Of a DNA stretch of 34,941 bases, positions 20,035 through 25,971 are shown in pieces. The notes under the pieces were generated by a model. That model did not search any database. It saw nothing but the letters and a program-made list of their open reading frames with translations, and had not been told where the DNA came from. Origin of the DNA: Promethearchaeota archaeon (GTDB lineage: Archaea > Asgardarchaeota > Lokiarchaeia > Sigyniarchaeales > SOKP01); assembly GCA_019058245.1 (NCBI GenBank), contig JAHPZJ010000007.1:1-34941 (forward strand). The letters run 5' to 3'. The translations under genes were made by a program, and so were the position numbers. Position 1 is the first letter of the stretch; the number at the start of each line of letters is the position of its first letter.

Positions 20035-20408
20035 AAATTATTATTTTATATATAAAAACCTTAAATTAACAATAAAGTGTTAAAAACTAAGCAACCAATA
20101 ATTAAAAGAGATAATAAACCTTGTAATACTTCACCCAAATATTATAAGAATCTTTATTATCATTAATTTCTTTTTTTTTGGATATAATCTTTCATATATC
20201 ATTCTTTTTAAAAGAAGATATAAAAGTAATAATATAAATCAAGAAATTACTAATTCTTTATTCAAAATAATGAAAAATTTTAATTACGGCATAGCACTTA
20301 AAAACTGATAATTTTTCATTTTACTAAAGTATATAAAACAAAACTAAGATTAAATTCTTAATAAAAATTACATTAAATTCAAAAAAAATCTCTTAGAGGA
20401 GAATTATT

Positions 20409-20753
20409 CTGTCAGAATTTGAACAAAAAGTTTTAAAATTACTTGAAGATATTAACGGTAAATTAGATAAATTATTGATGTCTGAACCTACTCAAGTGAG
20501 TTCTGCACCTGCAACTTCAACTACACCTACTCCCATGGCTACTACAGTTAAACCATCTGAAATTGTGGATAGGCAAGAGGAAGAAGCACGTATGGAAGAA
20601 AAACCTCCAGTTGAAGGGCGTAGAGTATGTCCAGAATGTGGTGGTACTACATTTTCTACACTGGAAGATAAAAGTCAAGTACTACACCAAATGGGTGGTG
20701 TAAAGATATATGCGAAAAAATATGTCTGCAAGCAATGTGGATATGAATACTAA
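20409..20753 (+). CDS. Coiled-coil / Pro-Thr linker / Zn-ribbon protein (probable CTG start, 114 aa)
   Basis: SD GAGGAG at 20396-20401, then CTG TCA GAA...: (M)SEFEQKVLKLLEDINGKLDKLLMSEPTQVSSAPATSTTPTP...EGRRVCPECGG...KKYVCKQCGYEY. In-frame TAG at 20394. Confidence 0.8.
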   Translation: MSEFEQKVLKLLEDINGKLDKLLMSEPTQVSSAPATSTTPTPMATTVKPSEIVDRQEEEARMEEKPPVEGRRVCPECGGTTFSTLEDKSQVLHQMGGVKIYAKKYVCKQCGYEY

Positions 20754-21074
20754 TGAGTATATACCAAAATTTTTTTAAATTTTTTTTAATATATGTAAAG
20801 AATTAAGATTGAAGAATTTACACTCTTCTATTTGCTGCCCTACATAATAATAATTTTTTATCTTTTTACTATCTAGTTTCTAACCTTTTTTAAAAATCAT
20901 TATTAAATGAATATACTTCTAATATTTTTTTGGTTTTAACAGATAAAAATTATAATTTGATCTTTATAACTTAGCATTAGTGTATTTATTATAATTCCTT
21001 TCAGTTAGATTTTTAACCAGACTATAATTTAAATTCTTAATTAAAAATTTTATAAGGTATTTGCGGTGTAATAT

Positions 21075-22160
21075 ATAATTCCTCAATGGAGAATTAAAAA
21101 ATATATTCAATATGTTAAAAACTTCATTTTAAACAATTTTACTGACCGTAAGATACCTTATTCTGCTCAGATAGAATTAACCTTACGTTGTAATGGTAAA
21201 TGTTCATTTTGCTCAATTCATTCTTTACCTGAATCTATAATAGGTAATGACATGACAACAGCACAAATAAAATATCTTATTGATGAAATTGTGGATTTGG
21301 GTATATTGGCTCTCTCTTTCACGGGTGGTGAACCAACATTAAGAAATGATCTTCCTGAATTAATTAGATATACCGGCATAAAACATGGATTATTGAATGG
21401 AATTGCAACAAACGGATATTTATTGCCTAAATTGTTTAAAGAAAATAAAATTGAAGGATTAGATTATATTCTAATCTCTTTAGACTACCCTACTGCAGAA
21501 TTACACAACAAAATGAGAGGCATAAAAGTTTTTGACAAAGTTATCGAATCTATCAATTTAGCAAATAAGCATGATATCAAGACTATTATAAGTACTGTAG
21601 TTATGAAAAATAATATTCTCCTCTTAGAGGATATTTGCCAATTAGCTGAAAGATTAGGATCGTCAGTAGAGATATATCCATGTGAAGATATTATCCGAGA
21701 TTTCTCAAATATTAGCTATCAAATCAGTAATATTGAAGAAATAATGCCTGATGTATCTCAATGGGCAAATCAAATTAGAATTTTGAAAAAAAAATATCGC
21801 AATATTTTAACAGATCCAGTGAGTATTGAGGTAACTCAGAAAGGATTTGGTGGATATCCGAATTATCATCAAAAAACATTGCGTTGTCATGTAGCTGAAG
21901 CTTATTTATTTATAAGCCATGATGGATTCATTAGTTATCCATGTAAAATACACCCTATTAAGAGATTCAATGCTTTAGAATATCCTGTTTCTACAATTTA
22001 TAATTCATATGAGGTAAAAGAAATAATGAAATTGCATGACAATTATAGTTTCTGTGATAAATGTCGTTTAGGTTGTGCGATAGCATCCTCAATACCAACT
22101 CGTTGGAAAACGCTTTATGCTAAATATATTAAAGGGTTTATAGATGGGGGTTTAAGATAA
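21075..22160 (+). CDS. Radical SAM protein with SPASM/Twitch-like C-terminus (probable ATA/ATT start)
   Basis: ELTLRCNGKCSFC (CxxxCxxC, codons 21189-21212) lies in frame upstream of the first ATG (21252); FTGGEPTLR, IATNG, ISLD; C-terminal CH...PC...CDKCRLGC. Confidence 0.88.
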   Translation: MIPQWRIKKYIQYVKNFILNNFTDRKIPYSAQIELTLRCNGKCSFCSIHSLPESIIGNDMTTAQIKYLIDEIVDLGILALSFTGGEPTLRNDLPELIRYTGIKHGLLNGIATNGYLLPKLFKENKIEGLDYILISLDYPTAELHNKMRGIKVFDKVIESINLANKHDIKTIISTVVMKNNILLLEDICQLAERLGSSVEIYPCEDIIRDFSNISYQISNIEEIMPDVSQWANQIRILKKKYRNILTDPVSIEVTQKGFGGYPNYHQKTLRCHVAEAYLFISHDGFISYPCKIHPIKRFNALEYPVSTIYNSYEVKEIMKLHDNYSFCDKCRLGCAIASSIPTRWKTLYAKYIKGFIDGGLR

Positions 22161-22274
22161 AAAAGGGTTTTCTAAATCTCAATAATTTCATAGTATATAA
22201 TTCATTGTTTATTAGTAGATACAATTCATAAAATTTAATTTTAAATGCGCTTTTCATAAAGTAGTGATATAATA

Positions 22275-22913
22275 ATGTCAAATGTTGCTGTTATAATTCA
22301 AATTTTATTCATAACTATATGTATGATAATCTTTGGCATGATTCTTAATTATGTTTTAGGAGCAAGGAAAGATGCATTAAGTGACTTAACGAATAAGGCA
22401 ATGAATCTTCAAGAACGTATGAGAAATGCTCAACATTTAGGTGATTATCAATTAATGGTAAAACTCCAACAAGAATCAGTTCAGTTGATAAAACAGATGA
22501 TGAAAAAACAAATAATTCCCCTATTTATTAGATGTGCTATTTTTCTTGGAATTTTTGCAATACTAACAATAATATATTCAGATTATAGATCTGGGTTATT
22601 ATCGTTTCCAGTTCTCTTTTTTGGAAGTGGTTGGGTTGCAGTTTATTTTCTTTTCTCAATTACTATTTCCTTAATAATATATCTTGGAAAGAGATTATAT
22701 AGGAAAATCACTGGGAAAGGAAAATCATCACAGAGTTATTTATCAAATCTTATAAAGATGATCTCACCCACTCAGCAAGATTCAAGTGAACCTTTCCAAA
22801 TTTCTACTAAAGAACAATATCAAACAACAAATTATAATAAAACCACAAAGAACCACCAAGTAGAAGACTTATCAACTAAAAAAGACGCTTGGAAAGATCG
22901 CTTAAAAGACTAA
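22275..22913 (+). CDS. EMC3/TMCO1/Get1 (DUF106, Oxa1-superfamily) membrane insertase-like protein
   Basis: TM1, then a cytosolic coiled-coil hairpin (LQERMRNAQHLGD...LQQE...QMMKKQIIP), TM2 and TM3 with GWVAVYFLFS; polar C-terminal tail. Confidence 0.8.
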   Translation: MSNVAVIIQILFITICMIIFGMILNYVLGARKDALSDLTNKAMNLQERMRNAQHLGDYQLMVKLQQESVQLIKQMMKKQIIPLFIRCAIFLGIFAILTIIYSDYRSGLLSFPVLFFGSGWVAVYFLFSITISLIIYLGKRLYRKITGKGKSSQSYLSNLIKMISPTQQDSSEPFQISTKEQYQTTNYNKTTKNHQVEDLSTKKDAWKDRLKD

Positions 22914-22958
22914 AATAAATAATTTATTCTGTAAATTGATTTGTATAACAAAATAAAA

Positions 22959-23273
22959 ATGAATCGAAATTTAGTTTTAAATCTAATATTTATTGGATTA
23001 TTTATACTATTTTTAACTTTATCTTTAATGGTTGATTTCTTTTTTTTTATACCTATACTTTGTTTTTTACCCTTTTCATATAGAACAAATACTCGAAAAA
23101 AAATAAATTTTGAACAAAGGGTACCAGAAAATTCCTCTAAACAGAATTTTAAAAGAATAAAAGTAAAATATTGTCCTAAATGCGGAGGAGAAATAAAACA
23201 ATCAATTGCTAAATTCTGCTATCATTGTGGAGAAAAATTAAATAATATACAAGATGAAGTAAGCTATGGTTGA
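22959..23273 (+). CDS. Membrane-anchored zinc-ribbon protein
   Basis: N-terminal hydrophobic hairpin; YCPKCGGEI...AKFCYHCGEKL. Start at ATG 22959 (or TTG 22941). Confidence 0.8.
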   Translation: MNRNLVLNLIFIGLFILFLTLSLMVDFFFFIPILCFLPFSYRTNTRKKINFEQRVPENSSKQNFKRIKVKYCPKCGGEIKQSIAKFCYHCGEKLNNIQDEVSYG

Positions 23274-23775
23274 AAAAAACGATATAAAAAGGCAAATGAC
23301 ATTATATTTTGTGTTTGCTGGAGTAATGATAGGTCTGAATTATTTAATTCAAAAATTAAATGAATTAGTTATTGCTCCTTTCGTTTGTCAAAATTATGGG
23401 ACAATTGAGTTTATCCACGTGTTTTATTGTTCAGTTGACCCATTTAATATGTCAGAACTAATTGGTTCTATAATTGCGGTTGGTATTACTTATATCATTA
23501 AGTTCTTTTTAGATAAATATATAGTTTTTAAAAAAACAGGGACTGGTATTAAACAAACCTCTACGGAATTTATGAAATATTTTGGTTCCGCTATATTAAC
23601 TACAATTGAAAATATTGGAATCCAATTTTTATTAACTAATTTCCTAAATTCACCTCTAGAAATAAGCTTTATTATAGCATTATCTATTGGGTACCTAACA
23701 AAATTTTTCTTAGATAAACGATATATTTTTAATGATAAATTACAAATTGAAAAATCAAAAGATTTAATAGATTAA
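23266..23775 (+). CDS. GtrA-like membrane protein
   Basis: Four hydrophobic helices in two internal repeats ending KFFLDKYIVF and KFFLDKRYIF; EFMKYF motif. Confidence 0.8.
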   Translation: MVEKNDIKRQMTLYFVFAGVMIGLNYLIQKLNELVIAPFVCQNYGTIEFIHVFYCSVDPFNMSELIGSIIAVGITYIIKFFLDKYIVFKKTGTGIKQTSTEFMKYFGSAILTTIENIGIQFLLTNFLNSPLEISFIIALSIGYLTKFFLDKRYIFNDKLQIEKSKDLID

Positions 23776-23792
23776 ATGGTGTTTTTAATCAT

Positions 23793-24893
23793 ATGTCTAA
23801 TGAACGTGAAGGTCATGAAGAAGATAATGATCAATCAATTGTAGACGCACTCTCAACACTTGGTTGGGTAGAAGAAAAGAATGAGAAAGAGGAAACTCTA
23901 CAAACTGAAGATAATCTCAAAGAAAAAATTAAATACTTTATGGAAGAAAATAAACGATTGATTGGAGAAATGCATGAAAAAAATGAAAAAATTCAAAACT
24001 TAGAAGATCAAATCAAGAATTTTTCTCAAAAAGCAGAATATGAGGATGTTCAAACCCAAGCAGTTCAAAATTTATATGATGCTATAGAGAATAAAGATAC
24101 TGAGATTCAAAATTTGACCTCTCGTTTGAATGAGGACACAACAAAATTAAATAAAATAATCAATGATCAAATTGAAAAAATCAAAAGTTTAACTGCAGAA
24201 ATTGAACAAATTAAGTCTAATCAAACGGACAATCAAGAACTAATTAATGAACTAAATGAAAAAGAAGTAATAATTAAAGAATTGAAAGAACAAATAAACT
24301 ACATAGAATCAGATTCAATTCAAAAGTCTAAATTTGAAAAAGTAGAAGTCCTTTTAGAAAAAAAAGATGAAATTATTACAGAAAAAGAGAAAGTAATTTT
24401 TAACCTTGATAATGATTTAAAAACAGCTAATCAAAAAATACATGATCTCCAGCAACAATTGGAGACCTTTAATTTGGTAAAAAAAGATCTGGAGAAAAAA
24501 TCAGAACGAAATAAAGACTTAGTTGTAGAAATCGAAGAATTAAAGCAAAAAAATATTGCAGTCCAAGAATTAGTAGGGCATTTAGAGGAAAAATTAGAAG
24601 AAGCTCACAAAAAATCAGGAAATCTCACTGGTAAATTTGAATTAGAATTAGGAAATATGCGAAGTATGCTTGATGGAAGTGAAGAGGAGATTAAGAACTT
24701 AAAAGAAAAGATGAATGAATTACTTAACTCTAAAGATGAAATAGAACAAACAGCAGAAAAGATGTTAAGTGAAATTCAACTAATTGAAGATGAAAAACTG
24801 CAAATTGAATCAGAACTCCAAGAAAAAGATAAAGAAATAATCGAATTAAAGAAAAGAATCAAGTTAATGCGTAGGGATATGCAAAAATCATAA
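23793..24893 (+). CDS. Long coiled-coil protein (366 aa)
   Basis: Continuous E/K/Q/L heptads over about 320 aa with no Pro; no Walker motifs or TM; GGTG SD upstream. Confidence 0.85.
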   Translation: MSNEREGHEEDNDQSIVDALSTLGWVEEKNEKEETLQTEDNLKEKIKYFMEENKRLIGEMHEKNEKIQNLEDQIKNFSQKAEYEDVQTQAVQNLYDAIENKDTEIQNLTSRLNEDTTKLNKIINDQIEKIKSLTAEIEQIKSNQTDNQELINELNEKEVIIKELKEQINYIESDSIQKSKFEKVEVLLEKKDEIITEKEKVIFNLDNDLKTANQKIHDLQQQLETFNLVKKDLEKKSERNKDLVVEIEELKQKNIAVQELVGHLEEKLEEAHKKSGNLTGKFELELGNMRSMLDGSEEEIKNLKEKMNELLNSKDEIEQTAEKMLSEIQLIEDEKLQIESELQEKDKEIIELKKRIKLMRRDMQKS

Positions 24894-24963
24894 TTTTAAT
24901 CTTATTAACTAAGTAAATATTTGTAATTATTAAAAAAAGAGAAAAAATAAATAAATTAAATTC

Positions 24964-25971
24964 TTATTTTTCACGCCATTCCATACCACACTCGCCGCAA
25001 CGGTATTTTTTTCCGTACATGCGAGGATAGTCGAGGATTATATTTCCTTTATCAACACTTTCATGAATCATAAGAGGATTATCATTCCCACATTCGGGAC
25101 ATTTTCTACGTCCTTCTATATGATCCACAGTTAAAATTGAACTGTCTGTTTTTCCAGGTATACCCGGAGCGGCTCCTGAAGCCCTTACTTCAGAAATCTC
25201 CTCTTTAACTTCTTCTGGAGTAACTTCTTTAACCTCTGATTTAAATTCGGGTTGGATTGCTTTCGCCACTCTATCATCTTCATCTTCTCCCTCTAAGATC
25301 GATTCAGCTTTTAATTGGACAGCATCTGATTCCTTATAATCCACACCTCTTTCTAGCGCAGCTTTAAACTCTGCGTCATCACCCTCTTCAAAAATTGTTT
25401 CTTGCTGCAATCCCGCTCTATCAGCATCAATATTACGTGCCCATTGACCTGCTTTAACTTTTTCAGTAACACTACATGCGTTTCCTTGCCAGATATAAAC
25501 TTTATTTCCTAGATCAGCAACAAAGCAATCTTCAGAAGCAAGTGATTCTTTTTTAAAGGGAACTTGAATCATCTTCATAGCATTAATATCCTCAAATTCT
25601 TCAGATGAAACACGATAAAGAACATTTTTCCATTCATTAAATTGTGCGAAATCACCAGTAGTTACATCCTTAAGTAAAGTTTTTGCATAATTTTTTTCTA
25701 CTACTTTCATAGCACCCAATGGGTTAATTATTTTCATAAATTCTCCGGATTCTTGCCCTTGATCAACAGTAATTATTTTAGCAGCACCACCACGTTGCTG
25801 ATCGAGCGATCTTGCTTGAGCAGCACCCGCAGTTTTTTCATCAACAGAACATTTATTTCCTATCCACACGTAAATAGTCCTTTCATCGTCTAATAAGTAT
25901 ACATCTCCACTAGAAAAGATTAGTTTATTGATTTCCTTTAAATTCCCTTGGTCAATTAGATATAGCTTCAA
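24964..25971 (-). CDS. Two-domain gelsolin (Asgard 2DGel-like) with acidic linker and C-terminal Zn ribbon
   Basis: G1: FSSGDVYLLD...IYVWIG..CSVDEK..GAAQA..LD...VDQGQESGEF. G2: LASEDCFVADLG.KVYIWQG..CSVTEK..A...EEGDD.EF. Tail: CPECG...CGECG. Confidence 0.93.
   Translation of the reverse strand: MKLYLIDQGNLKEINKLIFSSGDVYLLDDERTIYVWIGNKCSVDEKTAGAAQARSLDQQRGGAAKIITVDQGQESGEFMKIINPLGAMKVVEKNYAKTLLKDVTTGDFAQFNEWKNVLYRVSSEEFEDINAMKMIQVPFKKESLASEDCFVADLGNKVYIWQGNACSVTEKVKAGQWARNIDADRAGLQQETIFEEGDDAEFKAALERGVDYKESDAVQLKAESILEGEDEDDRVAKAIQPEFKSEVKEVTPEEVKEEISEVRASGAAPGIPGKTDSSILTVDHIEGRRKCPECGNDNPLMIHESVDKGNIILDYPRMYGKKYRCGECGMEWREK

Follow-up and report, generated by a model that had tools for sequence, protein, structure and literature searches.

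The stretch of DNA analysed here (the window) comprises 34,941 nucleotides of a Lokiarchaeal genome, itself 3.09 Mb long and 76% complete (G000 in our sample). It carries two genes whose products both end in homologous zinc ribbons of 48 amino acids with four cysteines, hereafter called the module or the tag. The gene at 24964..25971 on the minus strand encodes a two-domain gelsolin (2DGel) of 335 amino acids plus a stop codon, in which the gelsolin domains are followed by a linker and the ribbon. The gene at 20409..20753 on the plus strand encodes a small protein of 114 amino acids plus a stop codon, made up of a helix, a disordered linker, an acidic stretch and the ribbon. Both open reading frames were present as a first-pass annotation of the window had described them. 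That annotation was also right that the two tails share one module and that the module is C-terminal in both proteins, the ribbon of the small protein being preceded by a linker that is modelled as disordered.

The window gelsolin is an ortholog of the characterised Loki2DGel and collinear with it in alignment: chain G of PDB entry 7WHG, "Lokiarchaeota gelsolin (2DGel)", matched it over residues 1-335 with E = 2e-174. Domains D1 and D2 (residues 1-214; 25330..25971, minus strand) were delimited by the Pfam repeats and by aligning the protein with 7WHG_G and with gelsolins and villins of eukaryotes; PF00626 was found twice (E = 1.2e-27, 95.9 bits for a cut-off of 21), and no such repeat was found by Pfam in the small protein. 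The linker (residues 215-284; 25120..25329, minus strand) is acidic, with 18 acidic and 8 basic among its 70 residues, and is the counterpart of the 69-residue "Link" of Loki2DGel (Akil et al., 2022; PMC9433394). The ribbon that follows (residues 285-335; 24967..25119, minus strand) corresponds to the published "Zn" domain of Loki2DGel.

The reading frame of the small protein is open from 20397 to 20750 and ends in the four-cysteine tail. Its AlphaFold model has a mean predicted local distance difference test (pLDDT) value of 70.6. The amphipathic N-terminal helix (residues 2-24; 20412..20480, plus strand), modelled as 22 residues (3-24) at a pLDDT of about 84, has hydrophobic residues at five of six a/d positions and a hydrophobic moment of 0.48, and it is kept in orthologs from three families of the order. 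The annotation's short N-terminal coiled coil is thus supported by this heptad-like pattern and by the architecture of the paralogs of the same subtype (see below), which bear long coiled coils, but the possible coiled coil would span three heptads, a marginal length for pairing. Residues 25-48 form a Ser/Thr/Pro/Ala linker modelled as disordered (pLDDT < 50). Then comes a K-P-S motif with an acidic stretch (residues 47-66; 20547..20606, plus strand), recognised by its conservation in orthologs: K48, P49 and S50 do not vary across 18 orthologs from three families, and the acidic stretch has 7 acidic and 3 basic among 18 residues. The ribbon closes the protein (residues 67-114; 20607..20750, plus strand) with a pLDDT of about 88.

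The start of this gene deserved particular attention, as no ATG, GTG or TTG occurs in its frame from the upstream stop to 20475. The codon at 20409 is CTG in the window. We read 16 orthologous loci in full, of which 13 belong to the same genus; the same-genus orthologs align with the frame from its first residues and have TTG (10 of them) or ATG (3) at this very position, with an AGGAGA-like motif a few bases 5' of the start codon. Therefore 20409, where the annotation had correctly begun the gene, is a conserved start. Because the window has CTG there, gene callers report a 91-residue product (P0207) beginning at ATG 20478; use of this codon or of TTG 20475, the next canonical starts, would delete the N-terminal helix. 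Some orthologs showed peculiarities at the other end of the gene. Those of G005 (L078) and G006 (L077) each contain an insert of about 30 bases that includes stop codons, late in the ribbon coding region and at different sites, and those of G023 (L072) and G024 (L067) diverge at the same point, the fetched stretch ending before the remainder. The window copy is uninterrupted and has no insert.

Comparison of the two proteins by BLASTP aligned residues 46-92 of the small protein with residues 285-332 of the gelsolin, with 19 of 50 positions identical and 28 of 50 positive (E = 5e-9). When the gelsolin tail alone was used as query against the whole genome, the small protein was matched at E = 3.5e-6. 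Apart from the four cysteines, the two tails have in common a G-R-R ahead of the first knuckle, the motifs CPxCG, D-K and Y-x-K-K, and an aromatic residue that follows the last knuckle. These shared residues indicate true homology and not a chance meeting of unrelated cysteine knuckles. An alignment of 31 modules extended this pattern: three of the four cysteines, which form two CxxC knuckles, are invariant and one is nearly so, and Y44, present in both window proteins and followed by K-K, is nearly invariant. In the model, the invariant positions other than cysteines are located on a long hairpin.

The shared module is not a discovery of this work; it has been published before, as the Zn domain of gelsolins from Lokiarchaea. 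Akil et al. (2022, Commun Biol 5:890; PMC9433394) described it in Loki2DGel (KKK44901.1; PDB 7WHG chain G), where their Zn construct covers residues 273-335, and in MKD1-2DGel. They noted its conserved extended loop bearing a tyrosine and reported that it occurs widely in Loki, invariably at the C-terminus and on multi-domain proteins that are unrelated, and that discrete small proteins made of the Zn domain alone exist, for example TFG08877.1. The same study did not find the domain consistently detectable outside Loki. The targeting or docking role that the annotation gave to the ribbon is a hypothesis already put forward in that study, and a reasonable one. The main text of that paper makes no mention of gene adjacency, operon, synteny or gene cluster. 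Relative to this main text, three elements are new here: two deep subtypes of the module, tag genes near gelsolin genes, and stand-alone homologs outside Loki.

The ribbon was modelled with confident zinc-ribbon topology (pLDDT 88.5), with long strands at residues 27-38 and 43-50 and the pair of CxxC knuckles in a position predicted to bind one zinc. Foldseek comparison of the model with the PDB yielded no hit that reached E = 0.001; its best rows were ribbons of the TFIIS, Rpb9 and RPA12 type (template modelling, TM, score 0.49-0.56, E ≥ 0.2). A search of 48,161 chains with VIA-align reached at best Z = 4.1, with NrdR, TFIIS, HVO_0758 and ribosomal ribbons, and Rpp21 was also among the nearest solved folds, again with weak scores. 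The likeness of the modelled module to solved structures is thus generic only. Similarly, for both window ribbons and all paralogs, Pfam gave generic zinc-ribbon families below cut-off and none above, and PF01096 was not listed for the window ribbons. One of five distant stand-alone homologs (see below) reached 22.6 bits for Zn_ribbon_TFIIS (cut-off 21), with no qualifying stretch; the other four matched generic zinc-ribbon families below cut-off only. Given these generic folds and the lack of a Pfam match above cut-off, a function cannot be transferred to the module from a relative. A feature search of the ESM Atlas returned scores above 0.9 only for a Promethearchaeota cluster of 62 amino acids.

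A profile search of the window genome detected 8 intact copies of the module and one split copy, all at the C-terminus. The carriers are the gelsolin, a tag-only protein of about 64 residues, a 282-residue protein in which Pfam matched nothing, and four proteins with coiled coils (160-300 residues), the small protein being counted as the shortest. In the protein database the module occurred in 1385 clusters of at least 99 amino acids and in 192 clusters of 29-109 amino acids, and 122 of 123 hits, in 122 retrieved proteins, ended 12 residues or less from the C-terminus. The sister family has other carriers (L080, L081), β-rich proteins of about 690 residues with a DUF11 domain (E = 4.7e-12), and a fourth family has Pro/Ala-rich proteins of 530-615 residues with two tags in one open frame (L082, L083). 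Elsewhere in the window genome (G000 C20:26545-28071; L094), a 509-residue open frame with an actin fold (PF00022, E = 1.8e-59) has a C-terminal region rich in CxxC knuckles; this region is not the tag (E = 0.11 only with the hidden Markov model of the module).

A maximum-likelihood tree of the 31 modules consists of two clades, A and B, each with a support of 100/99. Clade A holds all gelsolin tails, that of the window included, together with the tag-only proteins, one coiled-coil carrier and the 282-residue protein. Clade B groups the remaining coiled-coil carriers with the small protein of the window, which is thus an undescribed member of the module's other subtype. Its placement in clade B means that the ribbon of the gelsolin has closer relatives than the small protein; in the genome-wide search the small protein ranked sixth in similarity to the gelsolin tail, and four paralogs were closer.

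The distribution of the module was followed across 151 genomes of the phylum, 28 from the order and 123 from outside it. Every genome of the order (28/28) had between 5 and 11 matches. Outside the order, exactly one match was found in 47 of the 123 genomes, belonging to 14 families, and none among the genomes searched from eleven families. The five single matches that we read are stand-alone proteins of about 50-65 residues that keep D-K, the tyrosine, K-K and the final aromatic residue. The named records (among L114-L126) come from Ca. Heimdallarchaeum aukensis, Freyarchaeia, Baldrarchaeota, Hodarchaeota and Atabeyarchaeia; the tag is therefore not restricted to Loki, which widens the range given in 2022. 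In five distant Asgard genomes, the genes around the stand-alone gene had no common theme. The distribution of the module suggests a small stand-alone protein as the original form, which then multiplied and was fused in this order.

Association of tag genes with gelsolin genes is real and recurrent, and takes three arrangements. The first is that of the window, in which the small gene and 2DGel are convergent. Among 24 congeners (genomes of the same genus), 17 have the small gene on the same contig, 4-7 kb past the 3' end of 2DGel, and one further congener has it at 23 kb. In four others the two genes are on separate short contigs, and in two 2DGel was not found. One of these two, G006 (a single contig, 90% complete), has kept the small gene and, next to it, the radical SAM gene, the rest of the block being absent. 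A third family, represented by one genome (G026), has the small gene's ortholog at a distance of 2.3 kb from 2DGel. Two sister-family genomes have this ortholog on a different contig from 2DGel, three assessable genomes outside the genus have no tag gene near 2DGel, and the gelsolins of the fourth family do not have the tag.

The second arrangement was found in three sister-family genomes from three genera, where a tag-only gene of subtype A adjoins 2DGel or lies 2.4 kb past its 3' end. One of these genomes has the PEPVQV-repeat linker described for MKD1-2DGel. Tag-only forms of 60-70 residues are also encoded in the window genome (for example G000 C22:93585-93806). The third arrangement is a divergent pair in the window genome (G000 C28:73606-75174), where a coiled-coil-tag gene (L056:5607-6179, minus strand) and a gene for a one-domain gelsolin (L056:6297-7175, plus strand) are 118 bases apart. 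The former encodes a protein of 191 residues with a subtype-A tag, the latter a gelsolin of 293 residues with a 200-residue extension. This pair is kept in 19 of the 24 congeners, and a check of four sister-family loci and of G012 did not reveal it. Altogether, two of the seven other tag genes of the window genome are within 5 kb of one of its three gelsolin genes, for which random placement gives P of about 0.0024 in a test chosen post hoc. The remaining five have neighbours without a common theme. A weak module-like match near the third gelsolin gene was discarded, as it is ribosomal protein S27a.

These arrangements vary by lineage. Since the two genes of the window are convergent, they do not form an operon. 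Within the genus their spacing varies between about 4 and 23 kb, and the intervening genes are not conserved, being different or absent in other families; the five genes between the pair gave no indication that they are part of a system. Part of the gene list given for this interval was confirmed: Pfam matched Radical_SAM (E = 1.8e-18) and GtrA (E = 2.7e-13), and a coiled coil of 366 residues and a membrane protein with a sub-threshold zinc ribbon are also present. However, the EMC3/Get1-like insertase proposed at 22275-22913 matched EMC3_TMCO1 weakly (E = 0.005, 17 bits for a cut-off of 27.1), and this sequence-based assignment is a lead only. The radical SAM gene (21072-22160) has an unusual beginning. 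Its CxxxCxxC motif is upstream of the first ATG (21252), and the conserved N-terminus starts at ATT 21078, directly after a stop. Codon 21087 is TGG in the window, G019 and G002, and ATG in the orthologs of G006, G009 and G023; with TGG at the ATG position, half of the radical SAM orthologs seen have no canonical start.

We infer, as a rather probable reading, that the module is a portable docking tag for one shared cellular ligand. Binding modules are usually recognised by just such a history, in which a conserved stand-alone protein repeatedly turns into a C-terminal fusion, and this makes a docking tag the best reading of the data. An ancestral single-copy stand-alone module would have multiplied to about 5-11 copies per genome in the Lokiarchaeal order and would have been fused, always at the extreme C-terminus and behind a flexible linker, to differing front ends: a two-domain gelsolin, many coiled coils and, in sister families, DUF11 β-sandwich and Pro/Ala-rich proteins. 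The knuckle pair, with its four cysteines, would hold the long β-hairpin, and its D-K, Tyr and K-K residues would bind the shared ligand, so that whatever stands in front of the tag would be brought to the same place. The small protein would be a minimal member of subtype B, probably a dimer through its helix, and as such it could serve at the same ligand either as a bivalent clip or as a competitor. Several points weigh against this reading. No function can be borrowed for the module, as there is no Pfam family at cut-off and the model gave generic fold matches. The split between A and B is deep, and the two subtypes might bind different things. Also, the isolated Zn domain of Loki2DGel did not pellet with rabbit F-actin, and a fusion of green fluorescent protein with the gelsolin tail had a diffuse distribution when expressed in human cells (Akil et al., 2022; PMC9433394).

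The annotation had made the small protein the gelsolin's own partner, an oligomeric adaptor or competitor that tunes or positions severing and capping. The gene neighbourhoods speak for this idea: the linkage recurs through most of the genus and reaches G026, and tag-only genes lie beside or close to 2DGel in three sister-family genera, to which the post hoc placement test can be added. However, synteny within the genus may be mere shared ancestry. The ribbons belong to different subtypes, and nearer paralogs of the gelsolin tail exist in a genome with 8 copies. The two genes are convergent with unrelated genes between them, the small-gene ortholog and 2DGel are on different contigs in two sister-family genomes, and the small gene is present in G006, where 2DGel was not detected. 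A complex prediction of full-length gelsolin with the small protein scored 0.00; it was run without controls and speaks neither for nor against binding. Thus the proposal is not supported as stated, and we consider a dedicated partnership unlikely, although it is the best placed of the alternatives. A tag that binds actin filaments directly, in the manner of the villin headpiece, by side-binding on the gelsolin and by cross-linking or bundling of Lokiactin by dimeric coiled-coil carriers, appears less probable still. The layout is villin-like (gelsolin repeats, a flexible linker and a small shared C-terminal module), tag genes neighbour gelsolin genes, and a basic Tyr/Lys hairpin follows an acidic linker. 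On the other side, no association of the Zn domain alone with rabbit F-actin was seen (PMC9433394) and neither Foldseek nor VIA-align indicated any relation of sequence or fold to the headpiece. Furthermore, 11 of the sampled Asgard families yielded no stand-alone form, despite the presence of Lokiactin in virtually all Asgard genomes (Nature 2026, PMC13716822).

Two other explanations are, in our opinion, slightly more doubtful than direct binding to actin, and equally so. The tags could bind each other, the gelsolin being linked in this way to coiled-coil scaffolds and the tag-only proteins capping the contacts. Genomes with many paralogous carriers, tag-only genes beside gelsolin genes, and the likeness of the tag-only copy and the gelsolin tail within each lineage would all fit such pairing. 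Nevertheless, this likeness is equally explained by recent duplication, and most Asgard lineages hold a single stand-alone copy, which has no pairing partner. Alternatively, the ribbon could bind nucleic acid, or be an end-cap for stability or metal sensing that takes no part in the placing of proteins. The surface of the module is basic and its nearest folds, although with weak scores, are associated with nucleic acids (TFIIS, Rpb9/RPA12, NrdR, Rpp21 and ribosomal proteins), but these scores (Foldseek E ≥ 0.2, Z ≤ 4.1) are within generic fold resemblance. An end-cap would leave unexplained both the repeated fusion to cytoskeletal-type front ends and the strong conservation of the hairpin residues other than cysteines.

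The reading as a portable docking tag can be carried further, at the price of becoming speculative and, taken as a whole, improbable. The tag would then mark a Lokiarchaeal cytoskeleton-docking system, in which an ancestral Asgard micro-protein of a cytoskeletal or membrane site was fused to a calcium-regulated gelsolin and to coiled coils that organise Lokiactin, and in which the tag-only and helix-tag proteins whose genes neighbour those of gelsolins control access, either by competing or by bridging. A gelsolin-adaptor "system" is not established by our data; the gene neighbourhoods and the Asgard-wide stand-alone form are useful additions. The tag is carried by many coiled-coil proteins and by the Lokiarchaeal actin regulator that has been studied best, and the tag's ligand would show where gelsolin acts in the Asgard cell and whether Asgard archaea already used shared targeting modules for the cytoskeleton, as eukaryotes do. 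Our results also offer practical handles: two subtypes to be treated separately, gelsolin neighbourhoods as candidate sets, and, in other Asgard classes, a single-copy stand-alone form as a simple bait and a simple knock-out target.

Comparison with known systems places the two window proteins at different distances from what has been described. The window gelsolin shares with Loki2DGel the two gelsolin domains, the linker of about 70 residues and the (CxxC)2 domain with its tyrosine hairpin, and we saw no difference in the gelsolin itself. The discrete protein TFG08877.1 resembles the small protein in being a small protein with the same module; unlike it, the window protein adds a helix, a disordered linker, the K-P-S/acidic motif and a subtype-B ribbon. 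The ribbons of TFIIS, Rpb9 and RPA12 have in common with the modelled tag three strands and a long hairpin between two CxxC knuckles. They differ in that similarity scores are low (Z of 3.1-3.5 in addition to the Foldseek values above), the acidic catalytic loop is absent from the module, and the module is carried by cytoskeletal-type proteins and not by the transcription machinery. The headpiece of the villin family is a small C-terminal F-actin-binding module of villin, dematin and supervillin. It resembles the tag in layout only, as a module that follows gelsolin repeats and a flexible linker, is C-terminal only and is shared with non-gelsolin proteins, whereas its fold is helical and without zinc, the two are not homologous, and the Loki Zn domain was not bound to rabbit F-actin. 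The GRIP domain of golgins has no relation of sequence or fold to the tag and binds Arl1-GTP, and is thus an analogy only; the likeness lies in long coiled coils that end in a short C-terminal docking module with a key tyrosine.

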